Translations under genes and position numbers: made by a program | The notes under the pieces: generated by a model | The model's input: the letters and a program-made list of their open reading frames with translations, nothing else | What the model was told of the DNA's origin: nothing | The model's database searches: none | Part shown: positions 54,225 to 62,274 of the stretch, piece after piece | How positions within the stretch are numbered: position 1 is the first letter of the stretch | How the letters are laid out: every line of letters begins with the position of its first letter | IMG/VR virus record: IMGVR_UViG_3300049458_000012 | Location: 11,425 to 75,424 of that record | Origin: a virus | Lineage: Duplodnaviria > Caudoviricetes | DNA length: 64,000 nt | Direction: 5' to 3' (one strand)

Positions 54225-54517
54225 CGCTTCACTCCCGCTCGCCACAGCCTCAGCCGGGCGAGTAATTGGTTGTAGTCTTTGCGCAACCGACAAATTTCAA
54301 ACTTATCTATGTAGTGCGCACCCCAGAAGATCGGGCGCCAGGGGTCAAGCGCATCGGCCCGCTCCGCGGCGCTTACCGGGCCATCGCACCCGTATCCAAT
54401 CCCAACGCTTGTATTCTCGGTGCCGTCCAAAGCGAATCTCCTTCCAATGAAACAACTTGCCCCTGCCGAATCATCCACCCGCCCCAACGGACGCAGAAAT
54501 AAAAACGGGGCAGCCAC
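54221..54517 (-). CDS. Hypothetical protein (start uncertain)
   Basis: Stop overlaps the next ATG. Confidence 0.35.
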   Translation of the reverse strand: MAAPFLFLRPLGRVDDSAGASCFIGRRFALDGTENTSVGIGYGCDGPVSAAERADALDPWRPIFWGAHYIDKFEICRLRKDYNQLLARLRLWRAGVKR

Positions 54518-54545
54518 CCGTAGTTGGATGACTGCCCCGCGGACT

Positions 54546-55478: not shown

Positions 55479-55534
55479 GGTCTCATCAGTGTGCGCACAT
55501 TACGCACAGACGGGCCTCGCGGCCCGTTTCGACC
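55479..55534 (-). ncRNA. Type II hammerhead ribozyme HH10
   Basis: Minus strand reads GGUC GAAA CGGGCC GCGA GGCCCG UC^ UGUGCG UAAUGUG CGCACA CUGAUGA GACC; predicted cut 55509/55508. Confidence 0.95.
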
Positions 55535-55735
55535 TCATCGGGGGACCTCTCGTTGCCTACGGATGAAAATTTCTTCTCTGTCGATGATCACCTCTCGGGC
55601 AGCGATGAAGTGCAGTTTCACTTGCTGCCCCTGGATGCTGGCCACTTGAATTCGAATCACCTCCCCTTTGCAGGTTATGAAAATTGACTCTCCAACCCTC
55701 CGACCGAGGACCAGTCCTTCACTTTGCGTTGCCAT
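55535..55735 (-). CDS. csrA: CsrA/RsmA-family carbon storage regulator homologue
   Basis: LVLGRRVGESIFI...I.V.SI.G.QVKL...A..EV.IDREEIF. Confidence 0.85.
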   Translation of the reverse strand: MATQSEGLVLGRRVGESIFITCKGEVIRIQVASIQGQQVKLHFIAAREVIIDREEIFIRRQREVPR

Positions 55736-56849: not shown

Positions 56850-56906
56850 CCCAGACGGCGCCTCCTTCGCGCCGTTTCGCCGGAATCTCACCGGCTCATC
56901 AGTGGG
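56850..56906 (-). ncRNA. Type I hammerhead ribozyme HH9
   Basis: CCCA CUGAUGA GCCGG UGAGAUU CCGGC GAAA CGGCGC GAAGGAG GCGCCG UC^ UGGG; stem I extends GUG/CAU past an AA bulge; cut 56854/56853. Confidence 0.9.
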
Positions 56907-56907
56907 T

Positions 56908-57021
56908 TCACTTCCCGTCACCCTCCTTCGCGGACAATTCGCTGCGGCTCGGGGTTCCAACCCAAATGCCCGCAGCGAATGCCAGCACTACAGCGGCCAG
57001 GACGATGCTCCAATGGATCAC
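56908..57021 (-). CDS. 37-aa membrane peptide (not in ORF track)
   Basis: MIHWSIVLAAVVLAFAAGIWVGTPSRSELSAKEGDGK; GTGA overlap; stop abuts HH9. Confidence 0.55.
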   Translation of the reverse strand: MIHWSIVLAAVVLAFAAGIWVGTPSRSELSAKEGDGK

Positions 57022-58079
57022 GCGGCCTCCGCGATTGCCCGCCAATCGGTCTTCGGCAGCTCCAGGATGCGAGCCCCGTCCACCTCCAGCTGCGTCGCAC
57101 GCTCGTAGGAGGTCTCGTCCTGCGACTGCCGCGTGATGGCGTTCATCAGCCCGTAACGAGAAAGGTCCCCGCCTTCGATGAGGTGCCGCAGGATACCTCC
57201 CGCCGTTCCTTCGGTGTACCCGAAGTGCTTGGCCGTCACCTCCACGACGGAAGCGAGGTTCTTCGCCTCCAGACGCTGTTGCGTCGCGTCACGCATCTTC
57301 TCAACGAGCTTCTCCAGCACGTCGCGGGTGAGCACGCCGCGCACCGTGTCCTTCACCTTCATGAAGAACGCGGCATCGTCCAGCTGCTTGGTGCGATCGG
57401 AGTACAGCTCAAAAGCGTCCTCCGTCTCCGAGGCGCGCTTGCCGACGTGATAGCGGCGCTGGCCATAGTCCGGCGACACCATGCCGTTCTTGCAGATCAA
57501 CCGGTAGATGAGCGGCGCCACCTGCAACGCTCCAGAGCCAACCTCCGAATTCGACACCATGATGCCGATCTGCACCGGGTCACCCACCTTCACCTCCGTC
57601 TCGATCTTCGGCAACACGGCCTTCAAGTAGAAGCGCCGCTCCGTGAAGGAGGTGGATTCCACCCGGATCGAGTCATGGCTCATCAGCTCCGGCAGCACCG
57701 CCTGGGCCAGCTCGTAGTTATCGAGCGGGCGGTAACGATCGGAAAGAAAGGCCCTGGCCTTCCCGTCCAGCACCCGTACCATGCGGCGCGTGGGCTCTTC
57801 CTGGAAGAAGGTGTTGAGGGTGCGAGCATACAGGGCCGGGTGAGCGGTGCGGATGCGGTCCGCGTACTCCCGCGGTACCTTGTAGTGAGCCAGGGCCTGC
57901 TCGCGGAAGATCTCGCCTTCTTCGAGTGCGATCGGCTTCGCCCCCGGCAGCGCCAGCTCCAAACCCAGCTTGGCGTTCATGCTGAGCTGGGTGTCGATGT
58001 TGGCCACAAAGTCGCGCTTCGCAGCGTTGCGACGGTCGAGTTCAGTGGCCATCTGGGTCAGGGTCAAGTCGGTTTTCAT
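57018..58079 (-). CDS. DUF932/DUF945 family protein
   Basis: RAFLSDRYRPLDN, SNSEVGSGAL.V..LIYRL.C.NG, L.RYGL.NAIT. Confidence 0.85.
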   Translation of the reverse strand: MKTDLTLTQMATELDRRNAAKRDFVANIDTQLSMNAKLGLELALPGAKPIALEEGEIFREQALAHYKVPREYADRIRTAHPALYARTLNTFFQEEPTRRMVRVLDGKARAFLSDRYRPLDNYELAQAVLPELMSHDSIRVESTSFTERRFYLKAVLPKIETEVKVGDPVQIGIMVSNSEVGSGALQVAPLIYRLICKNGMVSPDYGQRRYHVGKRASETEDAFELYSDRTKQLDDAAFFMKVKDTVRGVLTRDVLEKLVEKMRDATQQRLEAKNLASVVEVTAKHFGYTEGTAGGILRHLIEGGDLSRYGLMNAITRQSQDETSYERATQLEVDGARILELPKTDWRAIAEAA

Positions 58080-58105
58080 TGCATTGTCTCCAAAAAGTTA
58101 GGTTT

Positions 58106-58159
58106 GGTCTCGTCAGTGCGGACCTTATCCGCAGACGGGCCTCGCGACCCGTTTCGACC
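58106..58159 (-). ncRNA. Type II hammerhead ribozyme HH8
   Basis: GGUC GAAA CGGGUC GCGA GGCCCG UC^ UGCGGA UAAGG UCCGCA CUGACGA GACC; cut 58134/58133. Confidence 0.95.
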
Positions 58160-58160
58160 T

Positions 58161-58613
58161 TTAAAAGAATCGGCTCCTGCGCAGACTTCCTTGTGCCCGC
58201 CGCGTGCTGAGTGTATCCCGGGACTCGTGTGCGCGTTCGAGTCCTTGATTGTAGAGATCGAGGAAGGGCTGCAGATCGGTCATGCGTGATTCACGCAGAT
58301 AAACCTCGATCTTCCGGCGCACATGCGGGCCGAAGCCCACCCGGACAAGCTGCCCGTCCAGCGTGACCCCGTATGAACGATCGGAGACGTTGCGCCGTGT
58401 GCCGCTCTTAATCAGCAGTGTTGTCACGATCCATCCAAAGCGCTCCGTGTTATAGAGCGTGAGACTTCTCGGCTGCGGATAAGCCAGCAACTTGTTCGCC
58501 TCGCGCCACTTATCGTAGGCCGCAACGCTCTTGTGAGGGCAGCGGTGCTCCAGGTCTGCTGCCGTAATGCCCGCGGGCAACGCGATCTCGGGAAGTTTGG
58601 TTTTGGCTTTCAT
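58161..58613 (-). CDS. Hypothetical protein
   Basis: Flanked by HH7 and HH8; the track's longer start runs through the ribozyme. Confidence 0.65.
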   Translation of the reverse strand: MKAKTKLPEIALPAGITAADLEHRCPHKSVAAYDKWREANKLLAYPQPRSLTLYNTERFGWIVTTLLIKSGTRRNVSDRSYGVTLDGQLVRVGFGPHVRRKIEVYLRESRMTDLQPFLDLYNQGLERAHESRDTLSTRRAQGSLRRSRFF

Positions 58614-58620
58614 TTCATTC

Positions 58621-58675
58621 GGTCTCATCAGTGACGGCATTTACCGCCAGACGGATCTCGCGACCCGTTTCGACC
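58621..58675 (-). ncRNA. Type II hammerhead ribozyme HH7
   Basis: GGUC GAAA CGGGUC GCGA GAUCCG UC^ UGGCGG UAAAUG CCGUCA CUGAUGA GACC; cut 58650/58649. Confidence 0.95.
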
Positions 58676-58789
58676 TCATCTCAAGTAATGGACACACGTC
58701 GCCAGCTCCGCGCAGAAGATCCCCAGCAGGATAAAAGCCAACACGGTTCTGGTCCATCGGACAGTGCGATGCTTCATTGTCATTGTCAT
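58676..58789 (-). CDS. 37-aa membrane peptide
   Basis: MTMTMKHRTVRWTRTVLAFILLGIFCAELATCVHYLR; AGGAG SD; stop abuts HH7. Confidence 0.55.
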   Translation of the reverse strand: MTMTMKHRTVRWTRTVLAFILLGIFCAELATCVHYLR

Positions 58790-59151
58790 TCTCCTGATCT
58801 CATAGAAGGCAACTCTTCCATCACCTCGGTGATCGATTTCACGGCCCCGTACCGTTGATAAGCGGCCCACGCATCCGCGGCCACCCCGGTGTCTCCCGCT
58901 CGCGCCATCCAATACTTGCGCGCACTCGGGGACAACGCATTCCACCAATCCATGCCGAGATCCTCCACGGCGAGCGTCATGCCCACGAAATGAGGTGAAG
59001 CACGCAGGCGACGGGCTTCACGGTTTGCCGCTTCCGGGGTGGTGAATTCAAAAGCCCCGCTGCTGAGCGCCGTGTACCCCTCGTCACCGTCCTTTCGGAA
59101 ATACCAGTACGCGCGGCGCTGGGCGTCAACACATTTTATCTTGATGCTCAT
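58786..59151 (-). CDS. Hypothetical protein
   Basis: ATG 6 nt after HH6; GMDWWNALS...R.YW...G...A.AW motif. Confidence 0.65.
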   Translation of the reverse strand: MSIKIKCVDAQRRAYWYFRKDGDEGYTALSSGAFEFTTPEAANREARRLRASPHFVGMTLAVEDLGMDWWNALSPSARKYWMARAGDTGVAADAWAAYQRYGAVKSITEVMEELPSMRSGE

Positions 59152-59157
59152 TGCATT

Positions 59158-59213
59158 GGTCTCATCAGTGCTGGCACTTCACCAGCAGACGGCGCGTCAG
59201 CGCCGTTTCGACC
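59158..59213 (-). ncRNA. Type II hammerhead ribozyme HH6
   Basis: GGUC GAAA CGGCGC UGAC GCGCCG UC^ UGCUGG UGAAGUG CCAGCA CUGAUGA GACC; cut 59188/59187. Confidence 0.95.
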
Positions 59214-59376
59214 TCGGTGTCATCGCGGCTCGCAGCGCCGCATCGCGTTCGGCCTTACGCGCGTGAAAAGCCGCGCGTCGGGCTTCATGCTCAATGCGCG
59301 TGGTTTCGGCGCTCTCGGGCGGCTGAGCCGTGGCCCGCTCGAAGAGTTTGAACAGATCGTCAGCGAGGGTTTTCAT
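59197..59376 (-). CDS. 59-aa protein whose stop lies in HH6 loop III (not in ORF track)
   Basis: MKTLADDLFKLFERATAQ...AAMTPRSKRR; ATGA overlap upstream. Confidence 0.5.
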   Translation of the reverse strand: MKTLADDLFKLFERATAQPPESAETTRIEHEARRAAFHARKAERDAALRAAMTPRSKRR

Positions 59377-59639
59377 GACCAGCGGTCCACCATTTCAGCC
59401 ATCTGCGCATCAATGTCAGCTTCCGCGAACACATCGACCTCGGCTTGTGTGCGGGTGCGTGGTGGGACAAACACGGCCTCTCCAACCGTCATCATTCGAT
59501 CCAGCTCCGCGCGCCGAGCAGCATTGAAGCGCTGAATGGCCACCAGCTCCGCGGCCCTGGCCACCTCAACCATCCGCTCCAATCGCTCGCGCTCCTGGCG
59601 AACAACGGTGACATCCTCTCTCAACTCGTTAAGTGTCAT
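59373..59639 (-). CDS. Coiled-coil hypothetical protein
   Basis: ATG 7 nt after HH5. Confidence 0.6.
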   Translation of the reverse strand: MTLNELREDVTVVRQERERLERMVEVARAAELVAIQRFNAARRAELDRMMTVGEAVFVPPRTRTQAEVDVFAEADIDAQMAEMVDRWS

Positions 59640-59646
59640 GGCATTC

Positions 59647-59702
59647 GGTCTCGTCAGTGACGGCACTTTACCGCCAGACGGATCTCGCGACCCGTTTCGA
59701 CC
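59647..59702 (-). ncRNA. Type II hammerhead ribozyme HH5
   Basis: GGUC GAAA CGGGUC GCGA GAUCCG UC^ UGGCGG UAAAGUG CCGUCA CUGACGA GACC; cut 59677/59676. Confidence 0.95.
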
Positions 59703-59705
59703 TTT

Positions 59706-60221
59706 TCAAGGCGGGCATTCGAGCAGCGTGCCCGTTTTCCCGTTCTCATCCGGACAATCCACGCGCAGCCCCCAATTCATGCGCGCAATGATCAGCACGG
59801 CAACGATCGAGAACACGGCATAAGCAACCGTCTTCCACTTGGCAATTCGAGCTTGCACCGCGTTCGCCTCCGCATCGGCCCGAGCGGCCAACCTTCGAGC
59901 GCGACTCTTCAAGGCCCCTGCCCGCATGCAATCGAACTCATCGTATTCCTTTTTCTGGATCGCATAATCCAGGGCCTGGGACGTAAGCCCGAAGCGCTCA
60001 GCAACGCGCGTGAGCAGGGCCTCGTAAACTTCCTGCTCCCGGGTGGAGTTGGCCGGGCCGCTCCACTCCCCACCATCAAACTGCGCATCTGCCTCCGCGC
60101 CAATGGCGAAAGATTCCCCAATCGGCGCCCACAGCCGCACCATGGCCTTTACCGCGAGCTTCGTGCGGTCTGCCGGCCAGTTGATGGTGTTGTGGCAAAC
60201 AATCCGTTTGGTAACTATCAT
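59706..60221 (-). CDS. Hypothetical protein with C-terminal TM helix
   Basis: GAGGAG SD after HH4; WKTVAYAVFSIVAVLIIA. Confidence 0.6.
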   Translation of the reverse strand: MIVTKRIVCHNTINWPADRTKLAVKAMVRLWAPIGESFAIGAEADAQFDGGEWSGPANSTREQEVYEALLTRVAERFGLTSQALDYAIQKKEYDEFDCMRAGALKSRARRLAARADAEANAVQARIAKWKTVAYAVFSIVAVLIIARMNWGLRVDCPDENGKTGTLLECPP

Positions 60222-60234
60222 TTCATTTCTCCTC

Positions 60235-60289
60235 GGTCTCATCAGTGCCCGCACTTACGGGCAGACGGTGCCGGAGCACCGTTTCGACC
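60235..60289 (-). ncRNA. Type II hammerhead ribozyme HH4
   Basis: GGUC GAAA CGGUGC UCCG GCACCG UC^ UGCCCG UAAGUG CGGGCA CUGAUGA GACC; cut 60264/60263. Confidence 0.95.
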
Positions 60290-60296
60290 TCTTCCC

Positions 60297-60713
60297 TCAA
60301 CCGCGCGCCACTGGTAAGTTTACATCCAGGAGCTTCTCGCGTGCCAACTTGATCTTCGCCTCCAACCGGTCCAGCTCTTCGTACATTCCCTGTACGCCCC
60401 AGGCCGGGTTGCAGCGTGGATCGGCCTGGATCACGCTGATGGCTACGGATGCCGCACGTAACGCGGTTCGCTTGCGCACTTCTTCGCGCGCCACGTCGAT
60501 ATCCGTGCGCAGTGTTTCGCGCCCATGGGGACTGGAGACTTTGTCCACCGCGCGCCCCTCTTTATCGAAGCGCTTGGTGATCTTCCCGCCGTCCCCGAGA
60601 TCGCGAACCGCCACGACTTGCCCCGTGGGCGTGATCTTCGTCACTTTGTATCCGAAGACGATGCCGTGATAGCCATCGACAGCAACCTCTTGATCAACTT
60701 TCACTTCGTTCAT
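60297..60713 (-). CDS. Hypothetical protein (SH3/KOW-like N-terminus)
   Basis: VKVDQEV...KVTKITPTGQV...RFDKEG. Confidence 0.65.
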   Translation of the reverse strand: MNEVKVDQEVAVDGYHGIVFGYKVTKITPTGQVVAVRDLGDGGKITKRFDKEGRAVDKVSSPHGRETLRTDIDVAREEVRKRTALRAASVAISVIQADPRCNPAWGVQGMYEELDRLEAKIKLAREKLLDVNLPVARG

Positions 60714-60737
60714 TGCATTGCCCCTTGAAGTTGGTTT

Positions 60738-60792
60738 GGTCTCGTCAGCACCCGCTTCACGAGTGGACGGCGCTCAGCGCGCCGTTTCGACC
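60738..60792 (-). ncRNA. Type II hammerhead ribozyme HH3
   Basis: GGUC GAAA CGGCGC GCUGA GCGCCG UC^ CACUCG UGAAG CGGGUG CUGACGA GACC; cut 60766/60765. Confidence 0.95.
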
Positions 60793-61014
60793 TTATGCGC
60801 GTAGTTTCCGGATGGTCTCTTCGAATTCGCGGATGTGTTCGCGAGGAACAACGATCGCAAACTTCGCGACCTGCCCCATGTCGTTGACCATTGCGGTGGA
60901 GGGGATATCTTGCGCAGCTATGCGGTTGGCCTTGCCCTTTTCAATCAGCAAGTCTGCGGCCACTTCTTCTATCTGCCCAAAGATGGAATAAACCTCAGTT
61001 CCAGAACGTTTCAT
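60793..61014 (-). CDS. 73-aa hypothetical protein
   Basis: ATG 6 nt after HH2; stop TAA abuts HH3. Confidence 0.6.
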   Translation of the reverse strand: MKRSGTEVYSIFGQIEEVAADLLIEKGKANRIAAQDIPSTAMVNDMGQVAKFAIVVPREHIREFEETIRKLRA

Positions 61015-61020
61015 GGCGTT

Positions 61021-61075
61021 GGTCTCATCAGTGACGGCATTTACCGCCAGACGGGCCTCGCGACCCGTTTCGACC
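61021..61075 (-). ncRNA. Type II hammerhead ribozyme HH2
   Basis: GGUC GAAA CGGGUC GCGA GGCCCG UC^ UGGCGG UAAAUG CCGUCA CUGAUGA GACC; cut 61050/61049. Confidence 0.95.
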
Positions 61076-61294: not shown

Positions 61295-61317
61295 TTGGTT
61301 TGGTCTCATTCGCCTTA
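61295..61317 (-). pseudogene. Internally deleted hammerhead relic
   Basis: UAAGGCGAA-UGAGACC-AAACCAAC keeps the 5' (AAGG(U)CGAA) and 3' (UGAGACC AAACCAAC) ends of the repeat but lacks stems I/III and the cleavage site. Confidence 0.65.
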
Positions 61318-62154
61318 AATCTTTTCGACGCGGTACACCTCGTGAGCCCGCAGTGAGTTCCTCGCGGACCAATCCACCGTTACCCCGTTCACGACCCCGG
61401 CCAAGTGCCGGTTCGTGCGCATCAGGTAGTTGGCCCCATCTGCCCAGACCTTGTTGAAGCGAGTGGGGTGGTGCGTCGTGACGTTCTTTAGTCCGGCGTG
61501 AACACCGGGGTAGCGGCGGATAAAGCTCTTGGGCGCAATGTTCGTCACTCGGAACCCGAGCGCCTTGGCAGCTTGCGCGGTGAGGTGGAAATAAGTTCCT
61601 TTGCCGGGTTTACGGCCTGCCGCGGCCAAGGCCGCGAGACACCGCGCGTAGTCGATCCCCGTCACTGCGCTCAGTGCGATAACCGCACAATCACGCTTTT
61701 CGTTGTTGGCACGAGACTTCGTTTGCAAGGCGCAATACTCGACCGGGGTGCGACGAGCGCGGATCGTTGCTCGACGCTTAGCGGCGGCACCGACGTAATC
61801 CCGGGAGGGCTTTCTTGACTTCGACTCGGGCACTGAGTCGCGAATCGCTTTCTGCGTCTCGGACGAGATGCCCAAAATGTTCATCACGGTCGGCGCAGGC
61901 GTCGTGGCCTCGGTATATGCCTTCACCCCTTCCGCGGTCATCTGGACCGTTGCCTCGTTGCCCGCACCGCCGCAAACAACGAAGCCTTTCTTTACGAGGC
62001 TGGAGACGACACCGGGGATCGACCGCAACTTCAGGTCGGAATTGTCCCCGATCGTGAACGACCAAACGGTTGCGGTCAGCGAGCCGCTGTCGTTGTATTC
62101 ACTCTTCACGATCGCGGTGAGGGCCTTCAGCTCGTTCGAAGTTAGTTTAGACAT
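61315..62154 (-). CDS. Two-domain protein: winged-helix-like N-terminus plus NEKRDCAVIALS..TG..Y domain
   Basis: GGAGA SD; GVVSSLVKKGFV...V.MT.EG; DC.V.A and H..GVVNG...DWS motifs. Confidence 0.65.
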   Translation of the reverse strand: MSKLTSNELKALTAIVKSEYNDSGSLTATVWSFTIGDNSDLKLRSIPGVVSSLVKKGFVVCGGAGNEATVQMTAEGVKAYTEATTPAPTVMNILGISSETQKAIRDSVPESKSRKPSRDYVGAAAKRRATIRARRTPVEYCALQTKSRANNEKRDCAVIALSAVTGIDYARCLAALAAAGRKPGKGTYFHLTAQAAKALGFRVTNIAPKSFIRRYPGVHAGLKNVTTHHPTRFNKVWADGANYLMRTNRHLAGVVNGVTVDWSARNSLRAHEVYRVEKI

Positions 62155-62183: not shown

Positions 62184-62274
62184 GACTCGTCAGTGCTGCG
62201 GGAACCGCCCAGCCAGCAGACGCACCCCGAAGGCTTGCGGCCTTTATGCGTAATCGCGCGGGGTGCGTTTCGTC
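62184..62274 (-). ncRNA. Expanded type II hammerhead ribozyme HH1
   Basis: GAC GAAA CGCACCCC [31 nt incl. AAGGC-CGCAA-GCCUU hairpin] GGGGUGCG UC^ UGCUG [GCU GGG CGGUU CCC G] CAGCA CUGACGA GUC; cut 62219/62218. Confidence 0.85.

Follow-up and report, generated by a model that had tools for sequence, protein, structure and literature searches.

A minus-strand operon with ten hammerheads between its genes

The stretch of viral DNA considered here (the window) is the last 64 kilobases (kb) of the 75,424-nucleotide (nt) IMG/VR virus record IMGVR_UViG_3300049458_000012, which is rated complete by CheckV, and it carries on its minus strand, from position 62274 to 55479, ten co-oriented hammerhead ribozymes, one of them of type I. 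The ten copies are packed into 6.8 kb, each of them in a gap between genes within a single block of small genes on that strand. Detection relied on a rule-based scan that takes account of structure: both strands were searched for GAAA ... CUGANGA flanked by pairing sequence, and this returned nine type II hammerheads, all on the minus strand: eight standard copies and one variant first copy. In every standard copy GGUC-GAAA is followed by the stem III hairpin and a C, after which come the cut, the stem I hairpin and CUGA(U/C)GA-GACC, and the scan bore out an earlier sequence-only reading of this DNA according to which all eight have the identical open stem II, GGUC/GACC. The catalytic core, i.e., CUGA(U/C)GA, GAAA and the A...U closing stem III, is complete in all nine type II copies, each of which has GUC before the cut and a G-C as first stem II pair; as read from the letters, loops close stems I and III in these copies and stem II is open.

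The head of the array is HH1 (62184-62274, predicted cleavage between 62219 and 62218), a variant type II hammerhead that scores 31.3 bits with the Rfam model RF02276 and has a stem II of three base pairs (bp), GAC/GUC, a long stem III with an inserted hairpin and an expanded stem I. It is followed on the same strand by the standard type II copies, all with GGUC/GACC: HH2 (61021-61075, cleavage 61050/61049), HH3 (60738-60792, cleavage 60766/60765), HH4 (60235-60289, cleavage 60264/60263), HH5 (59647-59702, cleavage 59677/59676), HH6 (59158-59213, cleavage 59188/59187), HH7 (58621-58675, cleavage 58650/58649), HH8 (58106-58159, cleavage 58134/58133) and, at the far end, HH10 (55479-55534, cleavage 55509/55508). 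HH3 is the sole copy with a stem I that begins C-G, A-U. Between HH8 and HH10 lies the type I hammerhead HH9 (56850-56906, minus strand, predicted cleavage 56854/56853), for which core and helices were read from the letters: the open stem I is CCCA/UGGG (4 bp), stems II and III are loop-capped, and the Rfam scores of 23.2 bits (Hammerhead_3) and 18.1 bits (RAGATH-1 hammerhead) are each under the respective gathering score. Directly upstream of HH9, GGGU...ACCC may form a hairpin competing for the ACCC strand, and this candidate on/off switch could act on the HH9 cut alone.

The predicted cuts of HH2 to HH8 delimit six cassettes of 284, 502, 587, 489, 538 and 516 nt, by which the previously described set of six cassettes of 284-587 nt, with its junction of 60766 to 61049, was reproduced exactly. 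They hold eight open reading frames (ORFs) between 58161 and 61014 on the minus strand, which in the order of transcription encode 73 (60793-61014), 138 (60297-60713), 171 (59706-60221), 88 (59373-59639), 59 (59197-59376), 121 (58786-59151), 37 (58676-58789) and 150 (58161-58613) amino acids (aa); searches of PHROGs, Pfam and NCBIfam gave no match for the seven of at least 59 aa. The fit between genes and ribozymes is close: cassette start codons lie 5-24 nt past GACC and stop codons 0-7 nt ahead of GGUC, with one exception that lies within stem III, where the 59-aa ORF (59197-59376) stops in the loop of the HH6 stem III hairpin, 9 nt short of the cut. A ribosome terminating on this ORF would need to unwind HH6, and the cleaved messenger RNA (mRNA) of the ORF would have almost no 3′ untranslated tail.

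In the alignment of the eight standard copies, which are 82% identical on average, all modelled pairs are standard and 100% of the cells are paired. Compensatory changes were found at six of the six pairs of stem I, two of the seven of stem III and none of the four of stem II, and the observed covariation score was reached by none of 500 shuffles. The motif CTGANGAGACC occurs eight times, as against 0.12 occurrences expected by chance from shuffles. It had been stated that stems I and III vary freely; for stem III this is an overstatement, since it is invariant at five of its seven pairs, namely the ACGG/CCGU base and the closing C-G.

A hammerhead relic is also present on the minus strand at 61302-61329, where GUCGAAA and UGAGACC-AAACCAAC have been kept and stems III and I, as read from the letters, are deleted. 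Its 3′ leader, AAACCAAC, is common to HH1, HH3 and HH8, and the relic shows that copies can disappear through internal deletion. It overlaps the stop codon of a 279-aa gene.

The 4-bp stem II among related ribozymes and arrays

Stem II is constant in the window, yet it covaries between arrays, in which GGUC/GACC, GGCC/GGCC, GGAC/GUCC, AGGC/GCCU and GAUC/GAUC were all found. The hammerheads for this comparison were drawn from viral contigs with two patterns, one blind to stem II and a second that fixes part of stem II, with a bias for GNCC in its 3′ strand. About 120 stretches were listed in each scan of the collections, and all counts of loci and copies given here are among the matches listed. 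Type II hammerheads in the fetched loci, which cover parts of the contigs only, were re-detected with the script used for the window, and two sets were compared: an unbiased set of 51 copies with a short stem I hairpin of 17-19 nt, and a larger, partly stem-II-biased set of 201.

Stem II has four paired positions, or five in a few cases, in 47 of the 51 unbiased copies. It is flanked on the 5′ side (position -5) by A in 96% of them, C11.1 and G10.1 are each present in 98%, G11.3 in 88% and C10.3 in 84%, and the outermost pair is C-G in 65% and U-A in 31%; the pair 10.2-11.2 is free, i.e., any pair occurs there. The 201 copies gave a concordant stem II and, in addition, a loop I consensus of U(99%)-N-A-N-G with a sixth stem I pair that is usually G-C; the stem I hairpin measures 17-19 nt throughout this subclass. 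Because variation is left to no more than one or two pairs, the invariance of stem II is mostly a trait of the subclass, and at least half of the “invariant” helix belongs to it and not to the window array. The change of a free pair passes through a mismatch or a wobble, which is presumably ill tolerated in a 4-bp helix beside the core, and for that reason stem II would evolve at a lower rate than stems I and III with their 6-7 bp. A tertiary contact between the pair 10.2-11.2 and the bases of loop I was considered as well and dropped, the associations being only weak and diffuse, such as shared ancestry gives. The subclass is widespread in the viral loci (L008-L234, e.g., L037, L069, L089, L129 and L176), and a scan of bacterial genome contigs gave no array and only 23 convincing single copies among the 120 stretches listed, and so contributed nothing to the comparison of neighbours.

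The window copies of type II share with RF02276 the catalytic core and the topology, with stems I and III capped and stem II open. The RF02276 model is built around the pseudoknot form: stem II measures 2 bp in its consensus, and loop I is paired with the 3′ tail, this pseudoknot being present in the majority of its members, whereas stem II measures 4 bp here, position -5 is always A, and the stem I hairpin, of 17-19 nt, has a sixth pair that is usually G-C and the U-N-A-N-G loop. The pseudoknot is regarded as absent here, as complementarity of the 3′ tail to loop I was above that of shuffled tails in only one of the nine window copies (HH3, 5 bp, p = 0.01). Of these nine, HH4 alone (38.2 bits) passed the RF02276 gathering score of 37, six others were scored at 23.3-33.2 bits, and the two at 59702-59647 and 58675-58621 were unlisted even at E up to 10. 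With seven copies at 23-38 bits and two unlisted, members of the subclass may be overlooked by genome annotation. What the comparison provides, and what may be of use, is a definition by sequence of this common type II subclass, to which Rfam gives poor scores: a strict 4-bp stem II, A at -5, a loop I of the form U-N-A-N-G and no pseudoknot. Arrays of pseudoknot-type hammerheads were seen too, with ten copies in the viral contig L121 and eight in L070 (AGC/GC-AGCC and GUC/GAC-AGG); between the copies of L121, loop I and the 3′ tail vary in concert (GCGA with UCGC, AGCC with GGUU), which is pseudoknot covariation inside one array.

Invariance of stem II within other phage arrays had been named by the sequence-only reading as a check on its proposal that the cassettes become circular mRNAs, with a stem II that varies between adjacent ribozymes named as grounds for refutation, and the invariance did not hold generally. 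At least two subclass copies were found in 33 other loci, of which 23 had a uniform stem II and ten were mixed; among arrays of at least three copies, seven of 13 were uniform and six mixed. A 4-bp hybrid could be formed, with G-U counted, by 56 of the 68 adjacent pairs, as compared with 35% of random pairs taken from different loci, and the 12 incompatible pairs were distributed over eight of the 33 arrays. In L072, for instance, GGUC/GACC, AGCC/GGCU and UGCC/GGCA are interleaved, L233 has four copies with GGAC/GUCC and one with GGUC/GACC, the five copies of L172 have four stem II types, and L160 is a further example among the arrays with incompatible neighbours. The foreign types in mixed arrays are always matched pairs, never mismatched chimeras. 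In the mixed arrays the ribozyme cores are intact and the spacing is normal (median 416 nt), and arrays therefore persist without interchangeable halves.

The same can be seen in the operon of the window. The GAC/GUC of HH1 meets the GGUC of the standard copies with a U-U clash, so that no hybrid is possible, and HH9, being of type I, cannot enter into a type II hybrid with the copies next to it; of the nine cassettes of the operon, three are thus unable to rebuild a hybrid. Given the mixed arrays and the presence of a type I hammerhead in the operon, the shared feature would be cleavage and not the formation of hybrids. In a relative, L234, with 48% protein identity in the neighbouring gene, the standard copies have retained GGUC/GACC, and the L234 array, like that of the window, opens with an expanded copy of different stem II.

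Proposed linear and circular products of the cassettes

Clustered hammerheads that flank genes in prophage and phage operons were described by Perreault et al. 2011 (PLoS Comput Biol, PMC3088659), who observed cleavage to the expected sizes for three clustered arrays in vitro and for one in E. coli, and who also noted that the flanked genes are not constant. The idea of circular products was raised in the same study and no circular or spliced products were detected, i.e., the idea is already known, together with a negative result; no report of circles from phage arrays was found in the later literature. In vivo cleavage has been observed for three type II hammerheads in Desulfovibrio vulgaris (PMC8782182). 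The window array resembles the 2011 clusters in that its hammerheads share one orientation and separate units of one or a few genes in a phage transcript, and in having mixed topologies in one cluster; processing into gene-length mRNAs was proposed for those clusters. It differs from the arrays tested in that study, which had three copies, by its ten copies in 6.8 kb that abut stop and start codons, and from the clusters by the strict 4-bp stem II of its subclass and by having no consistent loop I/3′-tail pseudoknot. The window array is a large, tightly built new example of an arrangement known since 2011.

The account favored here, with a probability of roughly 0.7, is that the hammerheads cleave the early operon co-transcriptionally into hairpin-capped mRNAs of one or two genes, and that the uniform stem II results from the constraints of the subclass and from common descent. 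It is supported by the complete cores and the three helices with eight compensatory pairs, by the common orientation and the placement beside stop and start codons, by a strong terminator-like hairpin after the array as against one weak site inside it, by the subclass consensus, by the relative L234, by the mixed arrays and by the published cleavage results. The ten hammerheads would be cis-acting, self-cleaving ribozymes in a single early operon on the minus strand of a 75-kb tailed phage, and each would cut after GUC during transcription, by which the polycistronic RNA would be split into one- or two-gene messages. Such a message would start with a 5′-OH followed by the stem I hairpin and end with a 2′,3′-cyclic phosphate preceded by the stem III hairpin, which is GC-rich, and the terminal hairpins presumably have a protective role. 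Because only the 4-bp stem II holds the products of a type II cleavage together, they would separate at once, and their separation would free the start codon 5-24 nt downstream. Two causes probably underlie the uniformity of stem II, one being that the subclass appears to demand exactly 4 bp, an A on the 5′ flank, G10.1-C11.1 and C10.3-G11.3, the other that the copies would descend from one founder, with compensatory change being slow in a short, critical helix.

Several points weigh against this account. Cleavage in vivo and the linearity of the products are, for the window array, deduced from its sequence. Stem II is identical in 62% of the pairs within arrays and in 22% of those between loci, and the excess persists where stems I and III are as diverged as those of unrelated copies (63% versus 23%); since it survives at that divergence, an array-level pressure on stem II beyond simple descent may exist. 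The within-array uniformity is most simply explained by descent together with the slow evolution of stem II, and this measured, still unexplained tendency of array copies to share stem II may in itself be of use. Nearest-neighbour folding (ViennaRNA), moreover, does not forbid a helix between the two ends of an excised cassette: for the six cassettes, the predicted probability of the hybrid 4-bp helix was 0.94, 0.77, 0.44, 0.64, 0.02 and 0.99. Finally, in the engineered Tornado system a ribozyme-flanked mRNA was circularised in E. coli by the native RtcB and was translated (PMC12628768).

The rival to which these points lend some weight is the one put forward by the sequence-only reading, namely that, after double cleavage, the 5′ GACC and the 3′ GGUC of a cassette pair and so rebuild a hybrid hammerhead in which the ORF takes the place of loop II, that reversal of the ribozyme or the RtcB of the host joins the ends to give translatable circles resistant to exonucleases, and that stem II has been kept uniform for the sake of the circles. 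If true, phages would make natural circular protein-coding mRNAs, which would be new as a way of expressing genes in bacteria and a possible means of resisting RNases and RNA-targeting defences. The structural premise is sound: stems I and III are self-contained hairpins, so a hybrid needs stem II only, and the halves of the eight standard copies are interchangeable. The predicted helix probability of 0.44-0.99 in five of the six cassettes, the compatibility of 56 of 68 adjacent pairs elsewhere as against 35% at random, and a within-array uniformity above what is predicted from stems I and III all speak for it, as do the Tornado result and the circularisation of retrozyme RNAs by RtcB. It is nevertheless improbable. 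The prediction it makes for other arrays fails in a quarter to a half of them, given that eight of 33 have incompatible neighbours and six of the 13 with at least three members are mixed; HH1 and the type I HH9 of the same operon are excluded from it; and the circles that were sought for three arrays were not found (PMC3088659).

The folding results were compared with controls in which the ribozyme halves were kept and the interior was replaced either by dinucleotide shuffles or by natural plus-strand phage sequence. The control medians for the hybrid helix were 0.01-0.28 with shuffled and 0.04-0.14 with natural interiors, single controls ranging from 0 to 0.99 in both. Five of the six native cassettes lay above the control median with shuffles and four with natural interiors, a fifth being just below it, and selection for end pairing in the native cassettes was not significant (Fisher p about 0.08 for shuffled and 0.15 for natural interiors). 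The model gave the cis stem II a low probability in the precursor context (P from 1e-4 to 0.6), and nearest-neighbour folding is therefore a weak guide to the folding of hammerheads either way. The ligated hybrid would, moreover, be a complete hammerhead and should re-cleave, because the same folding model predicts that the religated ribozyme folds; the modelling does not point to a fold that would keep the ribozyme inactive in the circle, the hybrid stem II having P of at least 0.44 in five of the six cassettes. The distance between stem II and the start codon is 5-9 nt in several cassettes, which would make the binding of a ribosome and the hybrid fold mutually exclusive.

The joining of the ends has parallels in known circular RNAs. 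In Avsunviroidae, viroid-like satellites and retrozymes, double cleavage likewise leaves a 5′-OH and a 2′,3′-cyclic phosphate on ends that are able to rebuild the ribozyme, and the units are closed by a protein ligase, a tRNA ligase or RtcB (PMC7229834, PMC7761336). These units are, however, identical tandem repeats with persisting circles, whereas those of the window are differing protein-coding genes among which only the ribozymes are repeated, in a DNA phage operon. Self-circularisation of hammerhead-excised retrozyme RNAs amounts to only 1-3%, even though these are natural circular-RNA elements, compared with 30-80% in vitro in the presence of RtcB (PMC7229834), and RtcB (PF01139) was absent from the phage of the window and from ten other array-bearing viral records, several of them incomplete, other ligase families not having been searched. 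The Tornado design also places a coding RNA between two self-cleaving ribozymes and yields ends that suit the native RtcB, but both of its ribozymes cleave themselves off the coding RNA (PMC12628768), and the circle is thus understood to carry no active ribozyme; the window cassettes, in contrast, pair by 4 bp only, and their ligation would recreate a complete hammerhead. It is likewise improbable that, where the host has active RtcB, an appreciable part of the six GGUC/GACC-bounded cassettes becomes circular and translatable, with the excess uniformity of stem II being kept in part for the pairing of neighbouring half-ribozymes that brings the ends together. The step from an invariant stem II to circularisation is unsupported: the invariance is mostly a subclass trait, arrays elsewhere are mixed, HH1 and HH9 are incompatible with their neighbours, no RtcB is encoded, and the folding controls are not significantly exceeded. 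In short, the invariance of stem II gives no support for circular mRNAs.

Uniformity might also be maintained at the level of the DNA, with hammerheads serving as module boundaries at which related phages swap cassettes by recombination in the core blocks, and with a stem II shared across the recombining population keeping the chimeras functional. This would fit with a stem II type that is common to the members of an array and to a diverged relative and differs between lineages, with the variable gene content between the hammerheads, which has no family matches, and with the inconstancy of the flanked genes (Perreault et al. 2011, PMC3088659); in addition, identical stem I or stem III alleles recur in differing combinations among HH2, HH5, HH7 and HH8. 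The foreign stem II types are always intact pairs, however, which argues that whole ribozymes move with the genes and that standardisation is unneeded, and only three of the four stem I/III allele combinations were seen, for which descent with mutation suffices, so that this explanation, too, is unlikely. The least likely explanation is that the hammerheads play no part in expression, being selfish or decaying repeats whose uniformity reflects only recent spread. The one internally deleted relic (61302-61329) and the 82% average identity of the copies could be taken that way, but the ten cores are all intact, the compensatory changes at every stem I pair imply long-term selection for pairing, the copies are precisely placed between stop and start codons, and the arrangement has been kept in the relative with 48% protein identity of the neighbouring gene.

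Genes and signals around the array

A Pam3 gp34-like gene (PF23977) lies upstream of the array, and HH8 is followed by a 353-aa gene (57021-58079, minus strand) with a DUF932 domain (PF06067, E = 1.2e-8). The stop codon of a 66-aa CsrA homologue (55538-55735, minus strand; PF02599, E = 4.6e-12) adjoins HH10, i.e., a phage-encoded RNA-binding translational regulator sits within the ribozyme-punctuated operon. A strong hairpin resembling an intrinsic terminator, with 15 pairs followed by a T run, was found downstream of the array (54505-54540, minus strand), and a single, weak terminator-like site was found on the minus strand within it.

A further feature of the operon is the motif AUGNAAUG, which consists of two AUGs five nt apart, the second of which is the start codon. 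It occurs 23 times, compared with 9.0 +/- 2.8 occurrences expected, and 18 of the 23 fall within the range 43.8-62.2 kb on the minus strand (e.g., 58077-58084, 58611-58618 and 60711-60718). The motif matches at least nine mapped gene starts of the early operon, often those without a Shine-Dalgarno sequence.

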